Below the pieces are notes generated by a model. It made no database searches. It was not told the DNA's origin and saw nothing but the letters and a program-made list of their open reading frames with translations. 64,000 nucleotides of DNA from Squalus acanthias (Eukaryota). Positions 4,940 through 62,399 of this stretch are shown piece after piece. Where the stretch lies: positions 133,674,001-133,738,000 of the forward strand of contig CM059431.1 in NCBI GenBank assembly GCA_030390025.1. The letters run 5' to 3'. Position numbers and translations under genes: made by a program. Within the stretch, counting starts at the first letter, position 1, and every line of letters starts with the position of its first letter.

Positions 4940-5159
4940 ATGGCGAATATGACAATTGAAATCGTTGCCTTCATATTATCCGTATCTGGATTTATTTTGG
5001 TGTCTTCGACGTTGCCCACAGACTATTGGAAGGTGTCTTCCATCGACGGTACAGTTATCACCACTGCCACTTTCTGGGCTAATCTCTGGAAAACTTGTGT
5101 GACAGATTCCACTGGAGTCTCCAACTGCAAAGACTTCCCATCCATGCTGGCACTCGATG
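4940..5159 (+). CDS. cldn10: Claudin-10 (10b-type) coding exon 1
   Basis: MANMTIEIVAFILSVSGFILVSSTLPTDYWKVSSIDGTVITTATFWANLWKTCVTDSTGVSNCKDFPSMLALD closely matches claudin-10b TM1/ECL1 (W...NLW..C...C); ends GAT G|GTTCGT, a phase-1 donor at 5160. Confidence 0.95.
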
Positions 5160-7647
5160 GTTCGTGATTTTAACAATTAATCAGTCTAATGAATCCTTTC
5201 CTGGTCCTTTACCGCCTCTCCTTGCCATTTCCCCCTCTGTCCCTGCAGCAGGTGTAATGTTATCGGGCAGATTCCTTTCTTATACTTTCTGATTCTATTG
5301 TTCATTCAATTCCTGTCAATTTATGTGCACGTTGCAGTCTTGCGTTGACTAAACAGAATAATTTATCACCACCTGATTGTGGACATTTTAAAAGGAAGAG
5401 ATTTTATCCAGCAATTTATTTTTTGCCTAAGAATCATTGAATAATCTTAAAAACGATGCAGAAAATTCTGAAATTACAGAGGAGGTCCGTCGGCATCTGA
5501 ATTAAAAAGATGGGTAAGTATTTGCGTTTTAGACCCTTCAAAACTTTGCATCCCAAACCGCAACCTATTTTTTCTCAGATGCTTACGAACCTGCCGTAAA
5601 GATCCAGGGATGTGCAGATTTCCGGTAATTGCCGCCCCCTCCACCCACCCTAAATCTTAATTTCTTTGCTTCATTATTTCCTAGAAAGTAAAGTGCAGCT
5701 ATATGCTTTAACCCGGCTGCAGGTCTGTCCTTAATTTGGGATTCTAGTTCGGGAATGTCATAAAACCTTTTAGTCCAGATTTCATTATTATCACATGTTT
5801 TATTCTTTTTCTTTTTCTAATTTCCTTGTATTCCACTCAATCTAGTTTTACACAAACACTCACTTATTCACACGCATCCTGTTTTACAATACTTATCCAC
5901 CTGTCGCAAGACACCACCCTGATGCGATCAATTCCGTTTTGCCTCAAAAGCCAATTTTAACAAGGACTTGACTTAAGTAAAAAAAACACAATATATTGAG
6001 AACGCTAAGCTGGGCAGCTAAAACGACCCTAAACAGGTCTAAAATAACCATTAGTGTAGTCGCTAATATATTCCACTTCATCGCTTTACTGTTTACCTCT
6101 GCTCTTCCAACTCTGTTATATTGTAAGAAATGACTGGTATTATTCTCTATGTCCTTCTTATTTGAAACGACTCTTATTTTTCCTGTCTTTTATTCCTATT
6201 CCGCCTGTTGATCTCCCTTTAACTTTTATATTTTTCCATTCATTTATTTTTTCACGAAGCTGTTTAATATAACGCTGGCCCCTCATTCCCCTTTCCTACT
6301 GCCTCTGCTGTTTTTCTTGTTTCAATTATACTTCTTTCCTTTAGCTCCGTCTTTATTTCAGTTCGAATGTCAGTATTTCTGGTCTGAGTGTATTTTACAA
6401 TCTTACAAATTTTGAAGAAATCTTTCTGATACTTTCCTTTTAAGATCACCCTCCTTGTTTTTCCGCTAGTAGCGAGTAAGAATCTGCACACTTGCGCAAC
6501 CTCCTGGCCAATACTAAATTGCTGAAACCCTGGCCGCGGTGAGCAGCTCGGCATATGAGGCTATTCGAAAGCCAAACGCAAAAGAACTGTTCAGAGTTGG
6601 CCTTACACCCCCCTCTCCTCAGAGGGACCTTTCGTTCTGGGCTTCGATTTATGCTCATCTGAAATGTCACTTCATTAATGGTGATCTGGATGTTTTGCAT
6701 CTCTATGAGATCGCTATAATGAAATACTGCGGCGTTCTGTTCACCCCGTCATTCTCCGGGGACTGCAAGCCTTTTTGTTTAGGTGGAAGTACCTTGTTAA
6801 TGTTATCCTACCCACTTTCCTTGTTCAGTACCATTACTGTTGTACGGGTTTCAATATAGAGGAAAGGGATCACGAGAATCATGAGATTTGCCTGTCAGTG
6901 CAACTCCCTGTCCGAGCAGGACAACATGTTTGTAGAACACAGACAAGCTTTGTCCTTTCAAACAAAATAATTTCCATATCGACAACTATATTGTTCTAGT
7001 TTGCACACAAACTAAGAGTGGGGAAGAACTTAACCGTCTGTTGGGTCACTGCCAATAAATAGTATTCGATACATTTGCTGTACCGGTGCTTTTCTTGTAC
7101 TGTTTCAGTAATGGCCTGAGTCAAAATAATCCCATCCAGGTCTTTTCTTGCTTTTAGTCATCCCCTCGACCGATCTGGCCACACAGCTGATTGAATTCTT
7201 AATGTTTGAAATTGTTTTGAAACCGACAGCAAGATGAGGGAAATTAATTTGTTGTGACAAATATTGAAATAGGAAGATTTTCTCTGCTTGATATGGGAAG
7301 CCAAATCGTAAATACATTCTTCAACACGTTTACGATTTCGCCAAACATAGCGCACCGAGTAAAGGTGTCACTTTCTGATCAGACCCTGCTGTAATCAGAA
7401 GTATTCCTGTGAAAGTTGGATTGTACTTTTATTGATTTATATATAATGCATATTGATTTATCTTAATATGAATTTGGATATGTAGCTACTCGAGGGAAGT
7501 GTGGAATGTGGATAAAAGTTTCAGCAAGACCTCGAAACATATTTACCACTGAACTCTTGTCGCCCTTTTCATCCAGGTTAAATTAATCTCGAGTCATGTG
7601 AGGGGCGTTTACTTTTTCAGCTCATTAAACGGTTCTCTCTTCTGAAG

Positions 7648-22985: not shown

Positions 22986-23834
22986 TTTGTCTCTCTTTGA
23001 GCTTAATGCAAATCCTGACCTTGAGAGAATGAAAAAAAAAGCTAGACCAGGCATGTAAACAGTAGTCCCTTTATAACTTACACAGTCTCTCTGTCTAAAA
23101 AAACACAAGCCACACCCAATATTTATTTTACCTGAATAAATATTTTGAAATGTATCCTCTAACTTTTCTTCAAAAAAAATTTGAAAAACTTTTGTGCAGA
23201 AGTTGCTAAAAGTTAAAGAAAAATCTTCTACCAGTACAGCTGACTGAATGGTACTGAAGCATCCTGGAAAGTTAGATACACAGCACATGCTCAAACGGCA
23301 GAATCCAAATTCAGCTCAAAGAGTCACATATCAGCAGGTTGCCTAAGGGTAACATTTTTACTGACTCGTTCAAGGAACTTGTTTTGACAACCAGGCATGT
23401 ACTGATTTTCCCCCCACTGATATTATTTTTATATTAATATTTATTAACCGGTAATTAAATATGGTTAGGGATCGCAAGCAGTTCGTGAGACAAACCTATG
23501 ACAACCTTTCTTCATTCCGTTTTATATATTTATACTGTTCAGCATAAATTCATCAATCAAATTAAAGCCAACCTGGACACTGGGGAGCGTGTGGGTTTAG
23601 GTGTGGGTGAGGGGTTAAATTTGTCGAAAATGTCAGCGCATCCAGAAGCTGGCTCCAACACATCGACTTCTGGGCGTAACTCGGGCGAGTTCGGCTGTGT
23701 GTGCGTAACCCCCTCCAGAGAGGCGGGTTAGCAATTTGAATATTTAAATCAGTGTATTGTAACAATATGTTAACCTGCATTTAAATTTAACGCCGCTTGC
23801 ATGGGTTTCATGGGCTTCCTAAAACTTCCTAAAA

Positions 23835-25713
23835 AAGACAGTCCAGAATGTCACCCGAGCACAACGCAACGCCATCCACGCTCTCAAGACCAACCGCAAC
23901 ATTGTCATCAAACCAGCGGACAAAGGAGGAGCCATCGTCATACAGAACAGAACGGACTATTGTAAAGAAGCATACCGACAACTGGACAACCAGGAACACT
24001 ACAGACAGCTACCCGCAGATCCGACCAAAGAACACACCCGCCAACTCAATAGACTGATCAAGACCTTCGATCCAGACCTTCAAAACATCCTACGCGCTCT
24101 CATCCCACGTAATCCCCGCGTGGGAGACTTCTACTGCCTCCCAAAGATACACAAAGCCAACACACCCGGACGTCCTATCGTATCAGGCAATGGAACCCTG
24201 TGTGAGAACCTCTCTGGATACGTCGAGGGCATTCTGAAACCCATCGTACAGGGAACCCCCAGCTTCTGTCGCGACACTACAGACTTCTTACAGAAACTCA
24301 GCACCCACGGACCAGTTGAACCAGGAACACTCCTTGCCACGATGGACGTATCGGCACTCTACACCAGTATCCCCCACGATGACGGCATCGCTGCAACAGC
24401 CTCAGTACTCAACATCAACAACAGCCAATCTCCAGACGCCATCCTACAACTCATCCGCTTCATCCTTGACCACAATGTCTTCACCTTCGACAACCATTTT
24501 TTTACCCAAACACACGGAACAGCCATGGGGACCAAATTCGCACCCCAATACGCCAACATCTTCATGCACAAGTTCGAGCAAGACTTCTTCGCTGCACAAG
24601 ACCTCCAGCCAACGCTGTATACCAGATACATCGACGACATTTTCTTCCTTTGGACCCATGGCGAAGGATCACTGAAAAGACTACACGATAACATAAACAT
24701 GTTCCATCCCACCATCAAACTCACCATGGACTACTCCTCAGAATCAGTCTCATTCCTGGACACACGAATCTCCATCAAAGACGGACACCTCAGCACTTCA
24801 CTCTACCGCAAGCCCACGGACAACCTCACGATGCTCCACTTCTCCAGCTTCCACCCTAACCATGTTAAAGAAGCCATCCCCTATGGACAAGCCCTGCGAA
24901 TACACAGGATCTGCTCAGACGAGGAGGAACGCGATGGACACCTACGGACGCTGAAAAACGCCCTCGTAAGAACGGGATATGACGCTCGACTCATCGATCG
25001 ACAGTTCCGACGGGCCACAGCGAAAAATCGCATAGACCTCCTCAGAAGGCAAACACGGGACACAACCAACAGGGTACCCTACGTCGTCCAGTACTTCCCC
25101 GGAGCGGAGAAACTACGCCATGTTCTTCGCAGCCTTCAACATGTCATCGATGACGACAAACACCTCGCTAAGGCCATCCCCACGCCTCCACTACTTGCCT
25201 TCAAACAGCCGCCTAACCTCAGAAGTACCATCGTTCGCAGCAAATTACCCAGCTTTCAGGATAACAGCGACCACGACACCACACAACCCTGCCATGGCAA
25301 ACTCTGCAAGACATGCCAGATCATCAACACAGATACCACCATCACACGTGAGGACACTACCCACCAGGTACATGGTACATACTCATGTGACTCGGCCAAC
25401 GTTGTCTACCTCATACGTTGCAGGAAAGAATGCACCGCGGCATGGTACATCGGCGAGACCATGCAGACACTGAGACAACGTATGAACGAGCACCGCGCAA
25501 CAATCGCCAGGCAGGATTGTTACCTCCCAGTCGGGGAACACTTCAGCAGTCAAGGACATTCAGCCTCGGATCTGCGGGTAAGCGTTCTCCAAGGCAACCT
25601 TAGAAACACACGGACAACGCAAAATCATCGAGCAGAAACTGATAGCCAAGTTCCGCACTCATGAAGACGGTCTCAATCGGGATCTTGGGTTTATGTCACG
25701 ATACATGACGTGA
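23835..25713 (+). pseudogene. Penelope-like RT/GIY-YIG endonuclease ORF (open from the truncation point; one frameshift near 25613)
   Basis: IKPADKGG, FYCLPKIHK..PGRPIVS, DVSALYTSIP, GTAMG, RYIDD, FLD, YRKPT; Cys-rich linker CHGKLCKTC; VVYLIRC...WYIGET; the shifted frame completes EQKLI...GLNRDLGFMSRYMT*. Confidence 0.92.
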
Positions 25714-26046
25714 TCCGGACTCGAGTCGTCGTTAGCTTGTTCACAGATGTGATTCCCAGTAAAAAAAGTAAAAATTTTCCCAGTAAAAAAGTAAAAAAAT
25801 GTTAAAGCTTTTCGTTTTACATACAGACGGCAGCTTTTGACACGTTAGAACCCCTGCGACTACACCTCATTGTCTCAGTTGTATCTTGCTATGTCTTTGA
25901 TGTGGTACCTTCCTGGCTGACTTAATTAACTTTATCACACCTCGGCAGATAGTCAGGATGATTTAATTTATTGGTCTGCAATTGTAAAGTACACATTCTT
26001 TGTTTTCCATCTATATATGCTTTGGAGATTCTGTATCTAATTTACT

Positions 26047-26089
26047 TCACCTGAGGAAGGAGCAAATCGATAGCTCCGAAAGCTTGTGA
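26047..26089 (+). ncRNA. Minimal type-I hammerhead ribozyme
   Basis: Stem I TCAC/GTGA; core CTGAGGA; extra A; stem II GGAGC/GCTCC; GAAA; palindromic AGCT in place of stem III; predicted cleavage after 26085. Confidence 0.85.
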
Positions 26090-26232
26090 TTTCAAATAAA
26101 ACTGTTGGACTATAACCTGGTGTTGTGCGACCTCTCAATTTTTTCCTAAAACTCACCATTGAAACCAAGACGAGAAGAGATTAGCAATTCATGGAGCTCA
26201 TTAAAAGTCAGGCAAATAGATCAATAAATACT

Positions 26233-27454: not shown

Positions 27455-28568
27455 ATGGCTGGTGCCATGGCTGCTTTAGATTGGACCTCGAACGAGGAGC
27501 AAGATGATGATTAGCAGCAGCAACATTCAGGTGTGGAGAGACCGGCAGGTGGTCAGCAGAGAGGGGGGGGCAGCAGAGGGGTCGAGCTCGCAGGAGGCAT
27601 TACCGTGTAACAGGATGTACAGGCAGAGGCTCAGCTTCCTTGACCTCTCAGAAGAGCAGTGCTTCCGGAGGCAGAGGGGCAGATGTTGTCGTGTCAGGTG
27701 GTGGCAGACATCTGCAGCCTTCTAGGAGAAGACCTGCTCCCTGCCGGACCTGGTGCCCATGTGGCTGTCAAAGTAACCACTGCCCTCAACTTTTTTGCCT
27801 CTGGATCCTTCCAGGGCACTACCGGAGACATATCCAGGATCTCCCAGTCAGTTGCAAAGAAATGCATAAGGCAGGCCACTGATGGATTGTTTGCCAGGGT
27901 CGACAATTATGTCAACTTCGCCTGTGATGACGCCAGTCAGAATGAACAGGTGTTCGGGTTTGCGGCTCTGGCTTGTCTTCCACAGATGCAGGGCATCACT
28001 GACTGCACACGTGTGGCAATCTGCCCACCCCTAGATCAACCAGGAGTATTCGTGAACCACAGGGCCTTTCACTCCATCAATATGCAGCTGCTGTGCAACA
28101 ACAAGAAAAAGTTTATGCAGGTGTGCACCAGATTCCCGGGGAGCTGCCATGATGCTTTCATCCTGCGGCAGTCCAAGCTCCACGACCTCTTTGGACCTGC
28201 AAGCAGAATTAAGGGGTGGCTGCTAGGAGACAAAGGATACCCCCCTTCAAACTTGGCTGACGACGCCCATGAGAAACCCAACCAATGAAGTCCAAGAGCA
28301 GTACAACAAAAATCATGTGACAACAAGATGTGTCAATGAGCAACCGATCGCCATGCTCAAGATGCACTTCAGGTGCCTGGACAGATCTGGAGGCATCCTT
28401 CAGTACTTGCCTGCATACAACATTGCACAGCAGCGAGGATTGGAGCTGCAGGAGGAAAAAGGCACTGAGCACACATCATCTGGGGACAAATCCAATGAAG
28501 AGGAGAAGAAAGATGGTGACCCCAACGCGGAATCAGCCGCTGCCTGGGTGCCTGGAATTCCCTTATAG
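27455..28568 (+). pseudogene. PIF/Harbinger DDE transposase (HARBI1-like), frameshifted
   Basis: KVTTALNFFASGSFQ, ISQS, GITDCTRVAI, FHSINMQLLC, RFPGSCHDAFIL, LLGDKGYP, YNKNHVTTR..EQ...LKMHFRCLD, spread over three frames. Confidence 0.9.
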
Positions 28569-31250: not shown

Positions 31251-32954
31251 TGTAATGGCACATGTTCACCCAATGGATGCAGTGCATTTGGTGAGGCTGA
31301 CTATCAGGGAGAGGCATCAAATTGCATAAAGATTAGGGTGAGTGACAGTGGTGGACGGATAGATGGGGATGTGAGGAAGTCCATAGAAAGAGAACAATGG
31401 GTGCACTTGCAAGGTAAGTGGTTGTGAGTAGTTATGTGATGGAGTAGGCTTGACAAGGCAGAGTGAGACGGCAGGGGAGTTGATCTGTACAACAGGATGT
31501 AGGTGAATGTGTAACTATACTCACCTTTCCTGACCCGGATAAGTCACTAAGGCGCTTCCTGCACTGAATCCAGGAGCATGCCATAATGCTCCTGGTGCTG
31601 ACCTCCTCAGCTACCTCCAGCCATGCCTTCTTTGTTGCAGCGGCAGATTTCTTCCGCCCATTGCTGGGGAAGAGTATCTCTCTCCAGCTCTGCACTAACC
31701 CCAGCAGTACATCAAGCGATGCATCGTTAAATCAAGGCGCATCCCGTGACCATGAATCCACGATGAAACTTCACCCTCTCTTTGTTCAAACTCCTAACCC
31801 CTCTAAATTCCATCTTTGGATTGGCCCTTTAAATACTGGAGTTGAGATCATGTCATGCGGGTCCACACCACACCTGCAAACCCAGAAGTAATTTTATAAT
31901 TAGGTGGCTGCGTTAAGATGCCACAGACCGACAGTTCTTCCAGGTTTCCCACTTGATATCGCACCCCACCGTTCTGAACGTGCCTCAGAGTTATTATTGG
32001 GGCCATTCTGTCCGTACATACTGCGACCCATCCCCATGTTATCAGTTCTTAGCCATTGCTCCTAAAGGTGTCCCTGTTAAATAACCTGTTGTTCCTTTCT
32101 GTGCCGGGCCCCGGTACCTTTGATGAGTAGCGCCGCTCTCGATCTGCCATTATTCTACTTACTTTCCAACAAATTGTGGTGCAGATTTTCCATTGGAGGA
32201 TTGGGGAGCATAACAGTCTAATTTATGACATTTGTTGCCAATATCACCATTGTGTTAAATTCCAGGCCTTTGACTGCTCGTGCGCTGCTTTTTCTATTTT
32301 GGTTGTGTTGGCTGTTGTAGCTGACGTTAAATTTTCCAAAAAATTATCTGGCTGAGGCTACAGTGCAATTGTGACCAGGGATTTCGGCAAAACTGTGGTT
32401 GGAATTCTGGGTTTGACAATTAGGATGCCATTGTGGCAGGAAGAGGAGGAGGAGCAGCAGCAGGATGAGTCCACAGACCTGCAGCTGCAGGGAGAAAAGG
32501 CAGAAGGAAGGAATCTCGCAGGAGCCCTTACCTTACTAGAGTGTGGAGGCCTGCAGTCTAGCAAGGAACAGTGTGTGAGGAGGTTCAGCTTTTCGAGGGA
32601 GGCAGTCACAGAGCTATGTTACCTGCTGCAGCACCAACTGCAGCCCAGCATCAGGTCACACTCGTCCTTGCTTGTTGTTCTGAAAGTGACTATGGCTTTA
32701 ATCTTTATGCCTCAGGGTCATTCCAGGCTGCAGTAGGTGACATTAGCAGCATTAGTCAATCTGTTGTGAATGCCTGTTTCAAGCAGGTGACAGATTTGTT
32801 CTTCACCAGAGCCAACAAGTTCCTCTTCTTCCCTACAGAGGCTGCAAATGAGGAAGATGGGACAAGCAAGGCCCACCTATCCTGCCATCTGCAAGAGCTC
32901 TTCAACAGCAGGTCATCCAGGAGTGCTTCAGCTAAATCATCCATATTCTCCTGC

Positions 32955-33160
32955 ATCAACAACAATAATTTGCATTTATATTGCTCCTTTAACGTAGTAA
33001 AAACAGCCCAAGGGGCTTCACAGGAACGATTATCAAACAAAATTTGACACTGATATTGGGACAGGTGGTCAAAAGCTTTATCAAAGAGGTAGGTTTTAAG
33101 GAGTGACTTAAAGGGGGAGAAAGATAAAGAGGCAGAGAGGTTTAGGGAGGGAATTTCAGA
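32955..33160 (-). mobile_element. L2 3' tail
   Basis: Matches 2565-2765. Confidence 0.8.
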
Positions 33161-33358
33161 GGTCAATGGGAAGCTGCAGCATACAAGTGACCACTCTATG
33201 GGGCACCAGATTGACATTCTGAGTGTGGGAGGGACAGAGTTCAGTCGCGAGAGGAAAATGGTCAAACACCTTAAGGGACACTTCCTCCAGCCTTGCCATC
33301 TGCCACACTTTGTGCTTTCTCTCCGCCAATTACATTGATGGCCACCTCCATCATTGGT

Positions 33359-33574
33359 CATGATGCGGAGATGCCGGTGTTGGACTGGGGTGGACAAAAA
33401 TGAGAAGTCGCACAACACCAGGTTATAGTCCAACAGTTTTATTTGAAATCACAAGCTTTCGGAGCGCTGCTCCTTCGTCGGGTGACCCGACGAAGGAGCA
33501 ACAGCTCCGAAAGCTTGTGATTTCAAATAAAACTGTTGGACTATAACCTGGTGTTGTGCGACTTCTCATTTTTG
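33359..33574. mobile_element. Fold-back insertion of two Penelope 3' ends with two hammerhead motifs
   Basis: Arms 33391-33483 and 33485-33578 are reverse complements except for loop II; 12-bp direct repeat TCCATCATTGGT at 33347-33358 and 33575-33586. Confidence 0.9.
33449..33485 (-). ncRNA. Hammerhead motif with U4C core variant (mirror copy on + at 33485-33520)
   Basis: Minus strand TCAC-CCGACGA-A-GGAGC-AGC-GCTCC-GAAA-GC-TT-GTGA. Confidence 0.7.
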
Positions 33575-33775
33575 TCCATCATTGGTGCCAGCTCTTGAAT
33601 TGCTGGTGGCTCTCCCTTGGTCCTTTTGATCTCTCTTCTTTTGGGCACCAGCTTGTCCTGCAAGAAGAGTGTTAGTGTGTGGCCTGTTGAAGGGGTGTGA
33701 AGATGTATGTGGTAGCTTAGCATAGATTACCTGGTGAGAGAAGTAGCAGGTGTTTGGAAGATGGTCCAGTAATGA

Positions 33776-35690
33776 TAAACATAAGAACATAAGAAATAGG
33801 AGTAGGAATAGGCCGATTGGCCCCTCGAGCCAACTCCGCCATTCGATAAGACCATGGCTGATCTTGGGCTCAAAGCCACTTCCCCGCCCGCTCCCCATAA
33901 CCCTTCACTCCCTTATCTTGCAAAAATCTGTCTATCTCCACCTTAAATGTATTTAATGACCCAGCCTCCACAGCTCTCGGGGGCAGAGAATTCCACAGAT
34001 TTACAACCCTCTGAGAGAAGAAATTCCTCCTCATCTCAGTTCTAAAAGGGTGACCCTTTATTCTAAAACTGTGCCCCCTAGTTCTAGATTTCCCCACGAG
34101 GGGAAACATCCTCTCTGCATTTACCTTGTCGAGCCCCCTCAGTATCTTATATGTTTCAATAAGATCACCTCTCATTCTTCTAAATTCCAAAGAGTATAGG
34201 CCTAGCCTGCTCAACCTTTCCTCATAAGTCAACCCCCTCATCTCTGGAATTAACCTAGTGAATCGTCTCTGAACTGCCTCCAATGCAAGTATATCCTTCC
34301 TTAAATTAGGAGACCAAAACTGTACGCAGTACTCGAGGTGTGGTCTCACCAATACTCTGTACAGTTGTAGCAGGACGTCCCTGTTTTTATACTCCAACCC
34401 CTTTGAAATAAAGGCCAACATTCCATTTGCCTTTTTGATTACTTGCATGCTGACATTTTGTGTTTCATGCACAAGGACCCCCAGGGCCCTCTGAACTGTA
34501 GCATTTTGTAATCTCTCTCCATTTAAATAATAATTTGCTTTTTTATTTTTCCTGCCAAAGTGTATAACCTTGCACTTTCCCACATTATACTCCATCTGCC
34601 AAATCTTTGCCCACTCACTTAGCCTGTCTATATCCCTTTGCAGATTCTTTGAATCCTCTGCACAACTTGCTTTCCCACCCATCTTTGTATCATCCGCAAA
34701 CTTGGCTACATTACACTCGGTCCCTTCATCCAAGTTATTAATGTAGGTTGTAAATAGTTGAGGCCCCAGCACCGATCCCTGTGGCACCCCACTAGTTACC
34801 GTTTGCCAACCGGAATATGACCCATTTATCCCGACTCTCTGCTTTCTGTTAGTTAGCCAATTCTCTATCCATGCTAATATATTACCCCCAATTCTGTGAG
34901 CTCTTATCTTATGCAGTAACCTTTTATGTGGCACCTTATCGAATACCTTCTGGAAATCCAAATACACCACATCTACTGGTTCACCTTTGTCCACCCTGCT
35001 CGTTACCTCCTCAAAGAACTCCAGCAAATTTGTTAAACATGATTTCCCTTTCATAAAACCATGCTGACTCTGCTTGACTGCATTATGATTTTCCAAATGC
35101 CCTGCTACTGCTTCCTTAATGAAGGACTCTAGCATTTTCCCAATGACAGATGTTAGGCTAACTGGTCTATAGTTTCCTGCTTTCTGTCTCCCTCCTTTCT
35201 TAAATAGGGGTGTTACATTTACGGTTTTCCAATCCGCTGGGACCTCTCCAGAGTCCAGGGAATTTTGGTATATTGCAACCAATGCATCCACTATCTCTGC
35301 AGCCACTTCTTTTAAGGCCCTGGGATGCAGGCCATCTGGTCCAGGGAACTTGTCGTCTTTTAGTCCCATTATTTTACCAAGTACTATTTCCCTAGTGATA
35401 GTGATTGTCTTTAGTTCCGCCCTCCCTGTGGCCCCTTGATTATCCATTTTTGGGATGTTGTTAGTGTCTTCTACCGTGAAGACAGATACAAAATATTTGT
35501 TCAGAGTCTCTGCCATTTCCCCGTTCTCCATTATTAATTCCCCAGTCTCATCCTTTAAGGGACCAACGTTTACTTTAGCTACCCTCTTCCTTTTTATATA
35601 TCTGTAGAAGCTCTTACTATCTGTTTTAATGTGTCTTGCCAGTTTTCTCTCTCAATTCATCTTCTCTCTCATTATTATTTTTTTAGTCAA
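33776..35690 (-). mobile_element. Young 5'-truncated CR1
   Basis: AACATAAG-type tail repeats at ~33778; uninterrupted RT frame. Confidence 0.92.
33870..35531 (-). CDS. CR1 ORF2 reverse transcriptase region, 553 aa open frame (no endonuclease)
   Basis: PGPDG, NYRPVSLTS, QHGF, YLDFQKVFDKVPH, GVPQGSVLGP, KFADDTK, RPHLEYC. Confidence 0.85.
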   Translation of the reverse strand: MENGEMAETLNKYFVSVFTVEDTNNIPKMDNQGATGRAELKTITITREIVLGKIMGLKDDKFPGPDGLHPRALKEVAAEIVDALVAIYQNSLDSGEVPADWKTVNVTPLFKKGGRQKAGNYRPVSLTSVIGKMLESFIKEAVAGHLENHNAVKQSQHGFMKGKSCLTNLLEFFEEVTSRVDKGEPVDVVYLDFQKVFDKVPHKRLLHKIRAHRIGGNILAWIENWLTNRKQRVGINGSYSGWQTVTSGVPQGSVLGPQLFTTYINNLDEGTECNVAKFADDTKMGGKASCAEDSKNLQRDIDRLSEWAKIWQMEYNVGKCKVIHFGRKNKKANYYLNGERLQNATVQRALGVLVHETQNVSMQVIKKANGMLAFISKGLEYKNRDVLLQLYRVLVRPHLEYCVQFWSPNLRKDILALEAVQRRFTRLIPEMRGLTYEERLSRLGLYSLEFRRMRGDLIETYKILRGLDKVNAERMFPLVGKSRTRGHSFRIKGHPFRTEMRRNFFSQRVVNLWNSLPPRAVEAGSLNTFKVEIDRFLQDKGVKGYGERAGKWL

Positions 35691-53337: not shown

Positions 53338-56148
53338 AATAGAATCATAGAATGGTTACAGCACAGAAGGAGGCCATTCGGCCCGTTGAGCCCATGCCGG
53401 CTCTGCAAGAGCACTTCAGCTCGTCTCATACCCCCGCCCTTTCCCCGTAGCCCTGCAATATTTTTTTCTTCATGTACTTATCCAATTCCCTTTTGAAAGC
53501 CACAATTGAATCTGCCTCCACCATCCTTTCAGGTATTGCATTCCAGCTCCTAACCACTCGCTGCATAAAAAAGTTTTTCCTCATGTCGCCTTTAGTTCTT
53601 CTGCCAATCACCTTAAATCTGTGTCCTCTGGTTCTCGACCCTTCCGCCAATGGGAACAGTTTCTCTCTCTCTACTCTGTCCAGACCACTCATGATTTTGA
53701 ACAACTCTATCAAATCTCCTCTCAACCTTCTCTGCTCTAAAGAGAATAACCCCAGCTTCTCCAGTCTATCCACGTAACTGAACTCCCTCATCCCTGGAAC
53801 CATTCTTGTAAATCTTTTCTGCACCCTCTCTAAGGCCTTCACATCCTTCCTAAAGTGCGGTGCCCAGAATTGGACACAATACTCCAGCTGAGGCAGATCC
53901 AGTGTTTTATAAAACTTCATCATAACTTCCTTGCTTTTGTACACTATACCTCTATTTATGAAGCTCAGGATCCCGTATGCTTTTTTAACCGCTTTCTCAA
54001 CCCGCCCTGCCACCTTTAATGATTTGTGCAAATATACCCCCAGGTCTCTCTGTTCATGCACCCCCTTCAGAATTGTACCCTTTACTTTATATTGCCTCTC
54101 CTCATTCTTCCTACGAAAATGTATCACTTCGCACTTTTCTGCGTTAAATTTTATCTGCCACAAGTCCGCCCATGCCACCAGCCTGTCTATGTTTTCTTGA
54201 AGTCTATCACTACCCTCCTCACTGTTGACTATACTTCCAAGTTTTGTGTCATCTGCAAATTTTGAAATTGTACCCTGTACACCCAAGTTCAAGTCATTAA
54301 TATATATCAAGAAAAGCAGTGGTCCCAGTACCGACCCCTGGGGAACACCACTGTATACCTTCCTCCAGTCTAAAAAACAACTGTTCACCACTACTCTGTT
54401 TCCTGTCACTTAACCAATTTCTTATCCATGCTGCCACTGTCCCTTTTATTCCATGGGCTTCAACTTTGCTGGAAAGCCTATTATGTGGCACTTTATCAAA
54501 CGCCTTTTGGAAGTCCATGTACATTACATCAACTGCATTGCCCTCATCAACCCTCTCTGTTACCTCATCAAAAAACTCAATCAAGTTAGTTAAACACGAT
54601 TTGCCTTTAACAAATCCATGCTGGCTTTCCTTAATTAATCCATACTTGTCCAAGTGACTGTTAATTTTGTCCCGGATTATCATTTCTAAAAGCTTCCCCA
54701 CTACTGAGGTTAAACTGACTGGCCTGTAGTTACTGGGTTTATCCTTACACCCTTTTTTGAACAAGGGTGTAACATTTGCAATTATCCAGTCCTCTGGCAC
54801 CAGCCCCGTATCCGAGGAGGATTGGAACATTATGGCCAGTCCCTCTGCAATTTCCACCTTAACTTCCCTCAGCATCCTAGGATGCATCCCATCCGGTCCT
54901 GGTGACTTATCTACTTTAAGTACAGCCAGCCTTTCTAGTACCTCCTCATTATCAATTTTTATCCCATCCAGTATCTCAACTACCTCCTCTTTCACTATGA
55001 CTTTGGCAGCATCTTCTTCCTTGGTAAAGACAGATGCAAAGTACTCATTTAGTACCTCAGCCATGCCCTCTGCCTCCATGCGTAGGTCTCCATTTTGGTC
55101 CCTAATCGGCCCCACCCCTCCTCTAACCACCCGTTTACTATTTATATGCCTATAGAAGACTTTTGGATTTCATTTTATGTTAGCTGTCAATCTACTCTCA
55201 TACTTTCTGTTTGCCCCTCTTATTTCCTTTTTCACTTCCCCTCTGAACTTTCTATATTCAGCCTGGTTCTCACTTGTATTCTCAGCCTGACATCTGACAT
55301 ATGCCCCCTTTTTCTGCTTCATCTTAATCTCTACCTCTTTCGTCATCCAGGGAGCTCTGACTTTGGTTGCCCTACCTTTCCCCTCGTGGGAATGTACGAC
55401 TGTACCCGAACCATCTCCTCTTTAAAGGCAGCCCGTTGTTCGATTACAGTTTTGCCTGCCAATCTTTGATTCCAATTTACCCGGGCCAGTTCCATTCTCA
55501 ACCCACTGAAATTGGCCTTCCTCCAATTAAGTATTTTTACTTGAGATTGCTCCCTGTCCTTTTCCATAGCTAATCTAAACCTTATGACACTGTGATCTCT
55601 AAATGTTTCCCTACTGACACTTGCTCTACTTGACCCACCTCATTTCCCAGAGCCAGATCCAGCAATGCCTTCTTCCTCGTTGGGCCAGAAGCGTACTGAT
55701 CAAGAAAGTTCTCCTGAACACTCATCAAAAATTCTTCCCTCTCTCTGCCCTTTACACTATTACTATCCCAGTCTATATTTGGATAATTGAAGTCCCCCAT
55801 TATCACTACTCTATCGTTCTTGCACCTCTCTGTAATTTCCCTGCAAATTTGCTCCTCTATATCCTTCCCACTAGTTGGCGGCCTATAGAATACACCTAGT
55901 AGTGTAATGGCACCTCTATTGTTTCTCAACTCTAACAAAATAAATTCTGTCCTTGACCCCTCCAGGACATCCTTTCTCTCCAGCACTGTAATATTCTCCT
56001 TAATCAATACTGCCACCCCACCTCCTTTCTTTCCTTCCCAATCTTTCCTGAACACCTTATATCCAGGAATATTTATTAGCCAATCCTACCCTTTTTTACA
56101 CCAGGTCTCTGTTATCGCCACAACATTATATTCCCATATGTCTATTTG
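53338..56148 (-). mobile_element. CR1 with most of ORF2 (APE endonuclease + RT), frameshifted
   Basis: EN: GGGVAVLIK, FYRPP, MGDFNYP, LLDL (55582-56055); RT frames 54297-55130 and 53426-54409; ATAGAATC tail. Confidence 0.93.
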
Positions 56149-57801
56149 CCTGGCCAACATTTATCCCTCAACTAGCATCACCAAAACAGACTATCTCATT
56201 GCTGTTTGTGGGAACTTTCTGTGTGCAAATTAGCTGCCATATTTGCATACAAATCAACAGTGACTACATTTTGCAAGTAATTTATTAGCTGTGAACTGCT
56301 TTAGGACATCCTAAGTATGTGTAAGGCACTATATAAATGCAAGTTCTTTTTTTATATTACTCACTGCATGTTGTTGGGATACTTCTATCTGAACTCTCTA
56401 ACAAAAATCGGCTCAAAGTGGGTGGGGGATCTGCTGCAACCTCCTAAACTCGATGACACAAGGTACGCCATTTTAAGGTAATGCTTCATTTCTACAGTAA
56501 GAGCAAGCTGTCAGTGCTACTTAGACTTGTAATTGGCAGCTTGCCCATTGGGGTTGGGCAGAAATCTAGCAAGGCTCCCATGATTTAAAGGTAGCCTGCA
56601 TCTCTTAAAGGGTAGGTGCCTTTAGTCTATGGTGAATGTCAGAGATGCTGTTGTAAAAAGAATGTCTACTGCTACAGCCCCCTGTTTCTCAGACAGTGCC
56701 ATAGAGGTTTTGGTGTTAGAGATAACCAGGAGGAAGGAGGTGTTGATCTCCGCAAAAAGGCACAGAGTGCCCTATCAGATAGCCCTGCAACAGTGGGCAG
56801 AGGTAACAGAGCATGTGAATGCCAGGGGTCTGGCAGAATGGATCTGGCAGCAATGTAGGAAGAAGTTCAATGACTTGACCAGAGCTGCTAAGGTAAGATT
56901 CCCAATCACAGCTTTTTTGCAATCTGCACAGCCCTGCATCACTCTACTGTAGCCCCAATATTAACAAGCCCTGCCACCTGCACTTTCTATCTCTCTCCAA
57001 TCACAGCAGCACACTTCAATTTACTTGTTCCTGCTTCCACTTGCACACACTGCACCTGCTCCTGCCCTCACAGTTACTGCTCCCTCTTCCACACACCTGC
57101 TACCTTTTTCTATTCACTAATCAAAGTATGCTAAGCTGCTACAGATGCCTTTACAATGGCATACCTCGTATCAACAGTCCACATATTAACACGGTCATAC
57201 TCTTCCTGCAGCACAAGCTGGTGTACAACAGAAGGGAGCAACTATCAATCCAGGAGCTCACATCAATGGAGGATTGGCAATAGCTGTTATCGGCAGAGGA
57301 AGAGCACAAAGTGTGGCAAATGATGAGGCTGAAGGAAGTGTCCCTGAAGGTGTTTGACCATTTTCCTCTCCTTTTCACTTGAGAATGAATTCTGCGCCTC
57401 ACACCCTCAGAATGACAACCAAATGGCCCATAGAACAGCCATTCATCTGCTGCAGTTTCTCATTACTGCTATGTGCTAACTCTTGTCCATCTCACCTTTT
57501 TCTAAGTCCTTTGTACATCCTGGGACCAGCTGCAGAAGAGGAAAAGGAAGGCAGCCCTCATAAAGAAGCACCATCACTCATTCTGACTCTTGCAAACGCC
57601 AGCGCAGTAATCAGCACTCTGCGTACTTTAGGTAATGAGTTTTAGGGTCTGAAACTGGGAGATTCCCCATGCACAGGAGAGGAGGAGCAAGGGCAGGGGA
57701 AAGGATGACACCTGACATACCTCTCCAGAGAGCGAGCTCACATCCTAGCTCTGCTGCAGAGGCACAGATGAGGGCTTCCAGGGCCCAGCCTTTAAAAGAA
57801 G

Positions 57802-58192
57802 GGATATCGGGTTCATGTCACGCTACAGAACGTGACTTGACATTGTTGTCTGTCTTTCCAGTTTTTAAAAAACAAACACAAAAAAAAACACAAAAAACAA
57901 ACCCCAAAAAAGACGGAGAGAGAGGAAGGGATATGGAGAGAGATCTGCTGCAGTCAGCAGCTTTTGACACGTTGGACCCCCTGGGACACATCTCATTGTC
58001 TTGGCTGTGCTCTTGGTGTGTCTTTGATGTAAGGAAAGATTGTATCTCTGCAGTATCTGTGTTTATATTCTATGAACTTTTGTAGATTCACTCATTATAA
58101 CCTTACCTGAAGAAGGGGCGATAGCTCCGAAAGCTTGTAATTTTAAATAAATCTGTTGGACTATAACCTGGTGTTGTGCGACTTCTCATATT
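57802..58192 (+). mobile_element. Short 3' copy of the Penelope family (last codons + 3' region)
   Basis: Aligns to 25680-26140; 11-bp direct repeat TTTAAAAGAAG at 57791-57801 and 58193-58203. Confidence 0.88.
58103..58140 (+). ncRNA. Minimal type-I hammerhead ribozyme
   Basis: TTAC-CTGAAGA-A-GGGGC-GATA-GCTCC-GAAA-GC-TT-GTAA; stem I covaries relative to the 26047 copy. Confidence 0.85.
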
Positions 58193-58924
58193 TTTAAAAG
58201 AAGACTGATAGGTGTGCACCAGTAATTGTTCAGTGCATTGGACGGCCTATTGAGGAGACTCAGTACCATGTTGGACAGTGTGTGAGGTTATCATATATAG
58301 ATTGAGGCAATGCAGCCTGTGGTGAGCCTCTATGAATGCTGCAGCAGGGCCCTCGATAGCAGAGCCATTGGTGACAGCTCTGACAGCTTCAATAAAAACT
58401 GAAACTGCTGCTATTCAGGCTCTGGACTTCAGCATCTCCACTGGCTTCCACAGTTTGCATCAAAGGATGGATAGGGGCTTCACTGCGAGTGCTGAGGCGC
58501 AGTCAAATGTGAGTGGCAGTGGCACAATGGGAGAGGCTGTTGCTGTCCTCTCTCAAGATGACATCACATCTGCCCCCCCCCCCCCCCCCCCCCCCCCGTG
58601 TCAACCCCTCAACAAATGCCCATCCAAGAAATGCAGCTGGGCTGAACTGCTTCCGAGCCAACCCTTCAACCAATATCCATCCTAGTGCCAGAAAGGCAGC
58701 TGGGTCCAGTAGTAGTTGAGATGCTGCAATGTGCTGCTGGGCCCTCTGAGGTCTGAGCTTCTTGAGGTCACTGACTACGGCCATCGCAAGTGCCCTCATC
58801 GGAAGCTCATTAACTTTCCATCTCCCACGCTGAAGCTCCTAGGGTCACACCACGTAGGAGGTCCAGAATAGGTAGGAGAGCATTAACGCGAGGCACTCGG
58901 GGCTTGCACCTTGGTGATCATTGG

Positions 58925-60127
58925 TTTATGGATGTGGCGTATTTGGACTTTCAAAAGGCTTTCGATAAGGTCCCACATAAGAGATTAGCGTGTAAAGTTA
59001 AGGCACATGGGATTGGGGGTAAGGTATTGACTTGGATAGAGAACTGGTTGGCGGACAGAAAGCAGAGAGTAGGAATTAATGGGTCTTTTTCCGAGTGGCA
59101 GGCAGTGACTAGTGGGGTACCGCAGGGATCGGTCCTTGGACCCCAGCTATTTACAATATACATTAATGATCTAGATAAGGGAATTAAATGTAATATCTCC
59201 AAGTTTGCAGATGACACAAAGCTGGGTGGGAGTGTGTGCTGCGAGGAGGATACCAAGAAACTCCAGGATGATTTGGACAGGTTGGGTGAGTGGGCAGAAG
59301 CGTGGCAGATGCAATATAACGTGGATAAATGCGAGGTTATCCACTTTGGTGTCAAAAACAGAAAGGCAGACTATTATCTGAATGGCAATAGATTGGGAGA
59401 AGGGGAAGTGCAATGAGACCTTGTGCACCAGTCGCTGAAGGTAAGCATGCAGGTGCAGCAGGCGGTGAAGAAGGCAAATGGTATGTTGGCCTTCATAGCG
59501 AAAGGGTTTGAGTATAGGAACAGGGATGTCCTGCTGCAGTTGTACAGGGCCTTGGTGAGACCACACCTTGAGTACTGTGTGCAGTTTTGGTCGCCTTATC
59601 TGAGGAAGGATGTTCTTGCCATGGAAGGAGTTCAGCAAAGATTCACAAGGCTGATACCTGGGATGGCAGGAATGACATATGAGGAGAGATTGGGTCGATT
59701 GGGCTTATACTCGCTGGAGTATAGAAGAATGAGAGGGGATCTCATCAAAACATATAAAATTCTGACAGGTCTGGACAAACTAGATGCAGGAAGATTATTC
59801 CCGATGGTCGGAGAGTCTAGAACCAGGGGTCATAATCTAAGAATAAGGGGTAAGCCATTTAGGACAGAAATGAGGAAGAATTTCTTCACCCAGAGAGTGG
59901 TGAACCTGTGGAATTCTCTACCACAGAAGGTAGTTGAGGCCAAGTCATTAAATATATTCAAGAATGAGTTAGATATATTTCTTAAAGCTAAAGGTATCAA
60001 GGGATATGGGGAGAAGGCAGGTACAGGGTACTGAGTTTGGATGATCAGCCATGATCTCATCGAATGGCGGAGCAGGCTCGAGGGGCCGAATGGCTTACTC
60101 CTGCTCCTATCTTCTATGTTTCTATGT
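58925..60127 (+). mobile_element. Young CR1 3' portion
   Basis: YLDFQKAFDKVPH, KFADDTK, RPHLEYC; TTCTATGT tail. Confidence 0.92.
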
Positions 60128-62026
60128 TTGATGCTCATTGTCAATTACAGTCTTTTACAAAATGCTTGGTGTGCAGAGTTTGTTTGGTGAGAATTTGTTG
60201 ACCAGGCAAAGTGATTTGACTGAAAGACCAGTGTTGGTGTTTGGGTTGAGTGCAGTCCTAAGGATAGTGGAAGGACTGGGACTGATGTTGGGAATGCCTA
60301 ATGGTGCAGGGGAACACGAATGATTTAGCCGAAGAGCCCCTGGTGACTAGCTATTGAAGAGCTCAGGCAGCTAGTAGGATAGGTGAGCCTTGCTCTTCTC
60401 ATCTTCCTGTTTTGTAACCTCCATAGGGAACGAGATGAAGTCATTGGTGCTGGTGAAGAGGGCATCTGCCATCTGCTTGACACAGACATTCACAGCAGAT
60501 TGACTAATGTTGCTAACATCACCTATTGCAGCCTGGAATGAATGCTGAAGTGGAAGGGTTGCTCAGGATGCTAATGATTTTCTCTATCAGGGCTCTGGTG
60601 TAGGCATGGCTTTGATTGTACCTCATCTTGGCATCTATATCTATGGGTGGGTTCTTGGCAGGTGCCATGAGCCACATCTGCAAAGGATAGCCCTTGTCTC
60701 CAAGTAGGCAGCCTCTGAATTGTGGTCTGGGAGAGGGGGTAATTGAGGACTGGCACAGGATGAAGGCATTCTGACTGTTGCCAGGATACTAGGCACAGAC
60801 CTGCATGATGCGCTACATGTCATTACACACCAGCCGCACGTTCAATGGAAGCTCTTCCTGCTCATGTATACTCGTTTAATGTCCGTTACAACAGCCAATA
60901 CAGCCAAAATAGCAAAAGCAGTGCACTTGGAGTCAAAATGAAAATGGTGATTTATCAGAGAACGGCTCATGATCCCTTTAGATAATGCTGGGAGTGTTGC
61001 CATCCTGACTGTTCCTGCCTATGATTTGTGTGTCTATTGTAGACCTGACGAATAGCATGCTAAATTTGTTGAAAATGGCATTTGGGTCCATAGCCAGGCA
61101 CAGGATCCTAATTTGCATGTATGAAATAGGCACCCACCAATTAAAAGCGGGCACGCTTCCAGCACGGAATGGAGTATCACGACCGCAACCCAGTTTTCTT
61201 GGTCCTAGTGCCCATTGATAATTGCTTCCTGCATATCTTCTTTCCAAGGCCTACTTAGGCCTATGTACTGCATTTAAATTTGTGTTTCATTATTGTTTTA
61301 ATAAGGCCAGCGTATGGCTCTGTGAAAACAGTTAATGCCCAATTTGAAAGTTTCTTTTTCCCCCAATAGTGTACGTTCATGTTTCATGTGTTCATGAGGT
61401 TCTATCTAAAACGCACCTGTAGACTTTTACGTTTGTCTTTTATATATTTCATATTACTATTGAATGTCAGCCCCTGTTACCTGCGTTATTAGCGGTGGCC
61501 GAGGTCCCCTGCTACCAGTATGCACTTCGAAAATTAGCCCCCTTGCATGACCTTAGTCTCTTGCAACTTCTCATTCACCTCTCTGTCAAGATAGCAAGTG
61601 CTGAGAATTCATACCCCCAATATTGGTTTCTTCTTGTGAGTGAAGCACTAATTCAGGAAAGCATGTAAATTTATAATCCTGATTTATATCCCCCTCTAAC
61701 TCAAAACTATGGAAGTGTTTCCTTCCCTTAGTCTTCCATTCCTCCGACAATCTACAGGCTTTTAAAATCCAAGTTTGGTATTGTGCAGTCACTATTTCTT
61801 GATTTAATATTCTTCTCTCCCACTGTGGTGCCTGCACTGTGGGCCTTGGCACTTCACACAAGTATCTCAATTAAAAATATGATTTGTCATTGCACATAAG
61901 AGAAAAAGTGTTTCACGTTATCATAAATTTGTTGTAAATACTAATTTCTAATGCAATAAATAACAAAAATCTAATATCTTAGTGAATGTTCAGAATTTGC
62001 TAATGTTTGGTTTCTTTCTTATCCAG

Positions 62027-62188
62027 CTTATATTCAGGTCTGCAGAGGTCTCATGATTGCTGCTGTTTGTCTGGGATTTTTTGGTTGCATACTTTCACTG
62101 GTGGGGATGAAGTGCACAAAAATTGGAGGCCCAGAAAGGATTAAAGGAAAAATTACCTTTTGCGCAGGAATGCTATTCATTCTTTCTG
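62027..62188 (+). CDS. cldn10: Claudin-10 coding exon 2 (162 nt)
   Basis: Polypyrimidine tract + ATCCAG| acceptor; reads (A)YIQVCRGLMIAAVCLGFFGCILSLVGMKCTKIGGPERIKGKITFCAGMLFILS(G), in phase with exon 1; donor G|GTAAGG at 62189. Confidence 0.95.
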
Positions 62189-62399
62189 GTAAGGAGGATC
62201 ACAAGTGTGTAAGAGGGGTCTATACAGTCCTCGGCTGGTTTTCACCGCACGTTTTACTCAGGATGCAATTCTAAAAAGGCAAAGGAACCAAGTTAGTCAC
62301 TTGACTTAGAACAAAATAAGGCCCATACTGTGCTGCCAATCATTCATAAATACACAATCCTGTGCAAAACCATACATTATGCATTCTCAAACTGCATTT

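Follow-up and report, generated by a model that had tools for sequence, protein, structure and literature searches.

The locus examined here raises the question of what a very short Penelope-derived fold-back is: an element that moves as a unit, or something that a longer element leaves behind when it integrates. It lies in Squalus acanthias DNA, in a 64,000-nucleotide stretch that we call the window, and consists of two opposed, hammerhead-bearing ends between direct repeats. The first-pass annotation had offered both readings, a minimal retrozyme-like element moving as its own family or a stereotyped Penelope integration product. The second is supported by the architecture itself, which recurs thousands of times with independent TSDs, and the first is contradicted by the centre, the arm ends and the ribozyme alleles, which are reset in each copy. 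The focal fold-back is neither a unit-moving family nor a retrozyme but probably a dead-end product. Taken by itself the locus is unremarkable, since the genome holds no fewer than 8,477 of this kind and their layout is known.

Layout of the focal insertion

We confirmed from the sequence a 216-bp head-to-head fold-back with a 12-bp TSD on each side (33347-33586; Table 1). The inverted repeat is indeed centred on G33484, which is unpaired, with perfect arms of 75 nt (33391-33465/33504-33578) and 16 nt (33468-33483/33485-33500). Over the 93/94-nt alignment the arms are 97.9% identical, the two halves differing only in hammerhead loop II. The element is asymmetric, its left arm being about 32 nt longer by the tail of the Penelope-like element (PLE), which reaches up to the parent start codon. 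The absence of coding sequence was borne out, the element being pLTR plus the first codon or two of the parent ORF only. The 12-bp direct repeat on either side is likewise present, with the correction that each end shows microhomology over 4 nt: the right arm reaches 4 nt into its TSD copy, and on the left the match to the parent continues for 4 nt of the TSD copy there. In the sense of the host gene, the short arm carries AATAAA at 33526-33531. The RNA fold predicted for the focal element has -195 kcal/mol (z -23.5), and none of 200 shuffles was as stable. The long double-stranded RNA hairpin proposed for the intron agrees with this predicted fold, and in the claudin pre-mRNA it stands as a prediction.

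Table 1. Features of the focal fold-back and of a coding copy of the same family (positions in the window)
Feature	Position	Strand	Description
TSD, left copy	33347-33358	.	TCCATCATTGGT; last 4 nt are microhomology and match the parent beyond the long arm; single copy in the empty allele
Long arm	33359-33485	-	parent pLTR from hammerhead helix I to the ORF start codon, tail included; 98% to L076 from the end of stem II onward
Tail	33359-33390	-	long arm only; ends 3-7 nt inside the parent ORF; tail described in the available text of PMC8557442 and PMC11167929
Minimal type I hammerhead, long arm	33449-33485	-	U4C, loop II AGC, helix I intact (4 bp), palindromic helix III
Head-to-head junction	33483-33485	.	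arms share 1 nt, A33485; placed by comparison with parent upstream sequence
Short arm	33485-33574	+	parent pLTR; ends 29-33 nt before the parent start codon
Truncated minimal hammerhead, short arm	33485-33520	+	U4C, loop II AACA, helix I 5′ strand cut to 2 nt
TSD, right copy	33575-33586	.	TCCATCATTGGT; first 4 nt also continue the short arm (microhomology)
5′-truncated coding copy, same family	23835-26146	+	98.2% to L076; RT, linker, endonuclease region, 3′ UTR, short-ended pLTR

Both arms carry the U4C core change (CCGACGA), with loop II AGC in one and AACA in the other, as first noted. The symmetry axis had been placed exactly at the 5′ edge of the ribozyme; instead, it cuts helix I. The minus-strand copy keeps the 5′ strand of helix I, and helices I and II form when this arm is folded alone, while the plus-strand copy keeps two of the four helix I pairs and its fold gives helix II and no helix I. 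Each strand does bear a motif, but one hammerhead per strand was an overstatement, since the copy in host sense has a damaged helix I and the long hairpin would lock up both copies. Cut sites are predicted between 33453 and 33452 (minus-strand copy) and between 33516 and 33517 (plus-strand copy). Neither arm has the conserved core CUGANGA...GAAA, both being U4C, and an Rfam scan of the window gave no hammerhead match at E<=1 (three weak, unrelated matches). The assignment is based on the motif sequence and on the description of minimal hammerheads in the available text of PMC4209133, with which the focal motif shares the extra base 9/10.1, G10.1-C11.1 and a palindromic helix III. U4C is known from a viroid hammerhead, with activity lowered in vitro (PMC3088659, available text). 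Cofolding of two arm copies gave no hammerhead dimer, a result that says little. The ribozyme is a passenger, and the arms span its cut site uncut.

Genomic setting and allele state

The intronic position was confirmed: the element lies between two plus-strand exons of the claudin family (about 4943-5160 and about 62000-62190, the latter 62027-62190), in an intron of about 57 kb that is mostly repeats. These exons, which we take to be claudin-10-like, were found by a Pfam scan of 150 reading frames, namely 148 of the 150 longest among 357 unmasked frames plus two that were added. The element sits inside an older repeat, of which a second copy at 57060-57470 (71% identity) has no insert. Decayed DDE_Tnp_4 transposase fragments, presumably Harbinger-type, were seen at 27644-28565, 32562-33047 and 60522-60788, the focal target lying just past one of them. 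A LINE reverse transcriptase open frame of 593 codons, which we take to be CR1/L2-type, occupies 33870-35651 on the minus strand, with relatives at 53426-55169 and 58814-60034.

Four sequencing runs were compared over 32900-33950. The empty site that the first-pass annotation had suggested looking for exists: a contig of run X9 (RNA by guess), with flanks of 179 and 231 letters, joins 33346 directly to 33575 and lacks the element and one TSD copy. This join alone could be a copying artefact at a hairpin. In DNA run X5, the listed piece of the contig also stops at 33346 and shares the X9 flank variants, with the same depth value (25.8) at the variant beyond the element; from the first piece of the contig, the flank variants and the depth, we infer that X5 DNA also carries the empty allele. 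A contig of DNA run X1 matches 33553-33786 without difference and supports the filled right junction, though under the 31-letter bridging rule. Since the empty allele exists, the insertion is recent and not an assembly artefact; it is still polymorphic. As to A-to-I editing, one A>G place was listed on the element (33406); it is also present in all three DNA runs, and reads of the whole family pile up here, so that it says nothing about editing.

An assembly fold-back artefact could be imagined from the fact that, among the pieces listed for the four runs over 32900-33950, no contig spans the whole element. Such an origin is scarcely credible: the arms are unequal in length and loop, the TSD fits the family norm, the empty allele removes exactly the element and one TSD copy, the X1 contig matches the filled junction and the paralogous repeat has no insert.

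The parent element

Sequence comparison identifies the focal arms as the pLTR of a 3.1-kb Neptune/Nematis-type PLE, of which the focal element is to be read as the shortest product. A search of the 3.71-Gb genome with an arm 34-mer gave 51,486 exact matches. One locus, L076, holds a full element, composed of an inverted 5′-truncated copy (2.9 kb), pLTR, ORF, 3′ UTR and an identical pLTR with tail and TSD. Its pLTRs are 141-bp identical direct repeats (a partial tandem), the upstream one also beginning about 15 nt 5′ of the hammerhead core, and its ORF runs for 848 codons before a frameshift near its end. An RVT_1 domain was found in this single ORF (E 2.2e-9), and an RT domain also in the window at 23823-25661. 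A GIY-YIG-like stretch was recognised by eye in the L076 translation, that of a frameshifted copy, for which Pfam gave no GIY-YIG match. A CX4CxxC linker was seen by eye in the L076 ORF and in the window copy; according to the available text of PMC8557442, a CX2-5CxxC linker between RT and EN defines the Neptune and Nematis clades, and by this definition it points to one of the two, an assignment by motif. A PDB sequence search with the parent ORF gave two weak RT matches (E 0.44 and 0.95) and was uninformative. Junctions of pLTR and ORF number 565 genome-wide, some of them in tandems at 3,137-3,142 bp spacing.

Four such junctions at 3,137-3,138 bp spacing form a full-length tandem array of the parent at C2:211213568-211223010. 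In the window, the coding copy of Table 1 is young, has no inverted arm and ends at the short site, and an older, more diverged 3′ end of the same family lies at 57951-58194 on the plus strand, with A at ribozyme N7.

The core change is found in the long copies as well. Filtering left 869 U4C arms; the first 100 of these include 69 that continue into the parent 3′ UTR (by eye), and at C1:103.54 Mb such an arm is followed by the ORF start and, 3.1 kb on, by a second pLTR. On these sequences, U4C is read as a trait of the parent subfamily, inherited from long copies and not specific to fold-backs. Helix I appears to covary between lineages, one variant of the 3′ strand occurring with a matching variant of the 5′ strand, which suggests selection on the fold despite core changes.

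The fold-back population

Genome-wide, we counted 8,477 hammerhead-centred fold-backs with opposed ribozymes 38-68 nt apart, and 3,638 with a narrower pattern, at many different junctions; all genome-wide numbers are exact-pattern counts and lower bounds. The detailed samples were taken from the start of contig C1 or as best matches to the query, and flanks were lacking for 17 of the 50 listed fold-backs. L019 (duplicate of L012), L061 (duplicate of L031) and L069 (unmatched by the script) were left out, and from L031-L060 only five short fold-backs, picked by eye, entered the arm-end, lineage, mismatch and TSD sets.

As for copies with the same centre, the sign of a family proposed at first, they exist in part: 161 share the focal junction, but on many allele backgrounds, and the exact focal arm combination occurs once among the first 100 listed. 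Its mirror image also occurs once among the first 100 of the 161. Spacing between opposed arms is a continuum of 65-3,467 bp. The first 100 matches of the 34-mer include 28 head-to-head pairs, 12 at 65-135 bp (the focal element has 114) and 16 at up to 3,467 bp, and one close tail-to-tail pair. Short units in head-to-tail order are rare, with 29 tail-to-ribozyme matches genome-wide against the 8,477 fold-backs.

The sole hint of a unit being recopied comes from L086 and L088 (C1:8770409 and C1:9678679, 0.9 Mb apart), which have the same junction and the same chimeric ribozyme pair with different TSDs. This junction is present in seven copies, two of them chimeric, and the ends of L086 and L088 differ.

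In the longer fold-backs L039/L040, L035/L036, L054/L055, L058/L059 and L076, arm lengths are similar (about 1,100/1,100; 155/165; 830/660; 3,280/2,900), as if both cDNAs had stopped together; L033/L034 is an exception.

Arm ends and the start pile-up

One long and one short arm were found in 66 of 66 fold-backs, with ends at -8 to +17 and -25 to -54 from the ATG. These two clusters lie 30-40 nt apart; both ends vary over about 10 nt, and short-arm ends gather at a site of their own. An exact TSD of at least 9 bp bounds 60 of the 66, and in 57 of these 60 it is 11-14 bp long (mode 12 bp), all being different; the TSDs are 71% AT. No flank carried along from another site was detected in the 60 TSD-bounded fold-backs. 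After the six without exact TSD and, for the microhomology mean, eight more had been dropped, short-end microhomology averaged 1.87 nt (n=52), compared with 0.71 in 500 shuffles (shuffle maximum 1.13).

Arm starts pile up just 5′ of helix I. By eye, the break falls no more than 11 nt 5′ of the core in 44 of the first 100 U4 AG-loop arms, a single modal base taking 15 of these 44, in a count where the last-place filter slightly under-counts fold-backs. The same interval holds the breaks of 31 of 100 U4C arms (by eye). In the G-at-N7 subfamily, however, only 11 of 100 arms reaching the pile-up base stop within 5 nt (by eye), which counts against a fixed start. The word that contains the modal base is initiator-like, and rotifer pLTRs have words of this kind (PMC3846280); the Penelope pLTR holds a start site (PMC8557442; available text in both cases). 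For these two reasons a transcription start is the likeliest cause, and the pile-up base is probably the RNA 5′ end, most likely the start of pLTR transcription.

Ribozyme cleavage was rejected as the source of the arm ends, the arms extending about 35 nt 5′ of the cut site, and stalling of RT on the ribozyme is an improbable source, since the enzyme would be expected to halt on the 3′ side of the ribozyme. An extra base derived from the cap, at the junctions, is left as a weak lead: C comes next at 11 of the 15 modal breaks, but the partner arm is rich in C, and at eight other breaks the next base is G.

Ribozyme alleles differing between arms

Scoring by eye found the two arms of an element to be unlike in stem II, loop II or N7 in 20 of 50 and 28 of 100 cases, and scoring by script in 18 of 61 (28-40%). 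The script set is a biased one, as best matches to the query are part of it; five of 66 elements with unreadable stems were dropped from it, and one outlier was kept outside the means. Random pairing across the position-ordered sample would give 76% mismatched arms. Some of the differences are linked alleles that are found on both arms of other elements. In the focal element, the loops are two changes apart and the other 91 aligned positions identical. Over 48 nt downstream of the ribozyme, mismatched and matched elements are equally alike (0.44 vs 0.50 differences), and the two arms are always of one downstream lineage (1.09 differences intra vs 3.17 inter), which disfavours free pairing from an RNA pool. 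In four long elements, none of 24 checkable arm differences is an allele of other copies, only private changes being seen, and these arms look single-sourced.

The allele-mismatched arms argue for two templates and against the published self-priming. As sources there remain two templates of one co-active lineage, a single tandem RNA with its two pLTRs, or template switching within the ribozyme.

Integration mechanism and alternatives

We consider it likely that the focal insertion is an independent, recent integration product of an autonomous Neptune/Nematis-type PLE, according to a model of priming on both strands. The GIY-YIG endonuclease of the element is the presumed agent that would cut the two strands about 12 nt apart, the offset observed as TSD. 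Each 3′ end would then prime reverse transcription on pLTR RNA, by analogy with the anole enzyme and possibly helped by pairing over 1-4 nt; priming at the start-codon site on one side and 30-40 nt upstream on the other would yield the long and the short arm, with the ends and microhomology that we observed. Synthesis of both cDNAs would end by run-off at a fixed 5′ terminus of the RNA, located a few bases before the hammerhead and a putative cause of the pile-up, and the cDNA ends would be trimmed and joined head to head by a presumed pathway that fits the variable junctions seen. The arms could derive from two RNA templates of one lineage, as a candidate origin for the mismatch in the focal element, and longer fold-backs would be the same reaction begun at a downstream pLTR. 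According to the available text of PMC11167929, the PLE protein of the anole cuts the two strands and extends both; it starts at two internal sites, by which the tail is defined, a dimeric form is predicted for it, and it still inserts a ribozyme-dead RNA. The same text reports no homology between target and start site in vitro, which counts against priming helped by pairing. More tentatively, and as something just short of an even call, fold-backs may record double priming on two separate RNAs, with a dimeric enzyme, two tail-defining sites in the 5′ pLTR, run-off at the transcription start and end joining, the templates possibly being exchanged at a dimeric hammerhead. If true, this would replace self-priming for Penelope inversions and explain why full-length copies need more-than-unit tandems.

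Self-priming was proposed for Penelope palindromes by Arkhipova et al. 2013 (PMC3846280, available text). A single strand would snap back to make the inverted copy, and arm differences would have arisen later or by RT error at loop II. It would agree with the matching ribozymes in 60-72% of fold-backs, the arms that always match downstream of the ribozyme, the long arms that differ by private changes only and the 4-nt self-complementary word used at some junctions. We nevertheless find it unlikely, as the focal loops are two changes apart in an insertion that is still polymorphic and otherwise identical at 91 positions, both loop alleles are widespread elsewhere, multi-site chimeras occur (e.g. 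L084 and C1:11851111) and the short-arm end clusters at its own site, which copy-back does not predict. Another possibility keeps a single RNA lineage and exchanges only the ribozyme module, by a template switch inside the hammerhead, for example at the dimer interface or the cut site. That differences are confined to the ribozyme, that the same loop alleles recur on several downstream lineages and that minimal hammerheads are thought to dimerise via palindromic helix III (PMC4209133, available text) would fit such a switch. It seems distinctly improbable, since no more than 2 of 18 mismatched elements show a difference at N17, the altered-helix-I lineage has four mismatched elements and all four retain the matching 5′ strand on both arms, and loop II may be hypervariable within lineages, PMC4209133 noting extreme variability in its available text. 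This switch is a variant of the two-template model and the two are non-exclusive; a crossover exactly at the cut site was unsupported when arms were compared by script.

Copying of the fold-back as a unit, by a non-autonomous element of the retrozyme, SINE or MITE kind, would account for 8,477 copies of like architecture, and PLE machinery is described as moving other sequences between pLTRs in trans (PMC3846280, available text). L086 and L088, two of the seven copies of one junction, share that junction and their chimeric arms with independent TSDs and also speak for it. Against it stand junctions that vary widely, the focal junction occurring on many allele backgrounds and the focal combination appearing once in the first 100 of 161, together with the variation of both ends, the continuous spacing, the lack of foreign flank in the 60 TSD-bounded cases and the rarity of tandem short units. 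Unit copying is accordingly very improbable, and for the focal copy it is already largely refuted.

Significance

The origin of inverted and tailed PLE insertions is stated as open in the available text of PMC8557442 and PMC11167929. Self-priming (PMC3846280, available text) predicts identical arms, and thousands of young, allele-marked fold-backs allow this to be tested by counting. The set also gives a sharp prediction for the existing in vitro system, and matters modestly as a data set. Through the fold-backs, the genome also contains thousands of hairpins that are near-perfect over 90 bp and bear a poly(A)-like signal, some of them intronic and still polymorphic.

Comparison with known systems

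An inverted 5′-truncated copy with a 30-40 bp tail and a TSD is known for endonuclease-bearing PLEs (PMC8557442, PMC3846280 and PMC8969392, available text). The focal family resembles these complex EN+ insertions in the head-to-head inverted pLTR, the tail at one end, the TSD, the palindrome at the junction and the occurrence of partial and full tandems. It differs in that both focal arms are reduced to the pLTR without ORF, in the thousands of copies, in the sharp stop 5′ of the hammerhead and in arms with different ribozyme alleles. The start pile-up and the allele-mismatched arms were not found in the available text of the literature searched, which excluded subscription journals, Repbase and supplements.

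Similarly to Anolis Poseidon PAc (PMC11167929, available text), the focal family has two tail-defining internal start sites near the pLTR-ORF junction and AT-rich targets, and ribozyme cleavage is dispensable in PAc. Unlike PAc, it belongs to a different clade, its ATG lies about 100 nt downstream of the ribozyme with start sites flanking the ATG, and target and RNA share short microhomology.

The focal motifs are like the minimal type I hammerheads described in 2014 by Cervera and de la Pena (PMC4209133) in the extra 9/10.1 base, G10.1-C11.1, the short helix I (formed in the minus-strand copy), the palindromic helix III and high variability, and unlike them in the U4C core change and in one copy being truncated in helix I. 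The available text of that paper also describes, for Schistosoma, pairs of such hammerheads that lie 100-700 bp from each other and on opposite strands. Finally, like non-LTR retrozymes as described in the available text of PMC7229834 and bioRxiv 10.64898/2026.07.22.740005, the focal element is non-coding, hammerhead-bearing and PLE-derived, with a large TSD; whereas retrozymes are head-to-tail tandems with canonical ribozymes and circular RNA, it is a single head-to-head unit whose ribozymes are minimal and damaged.
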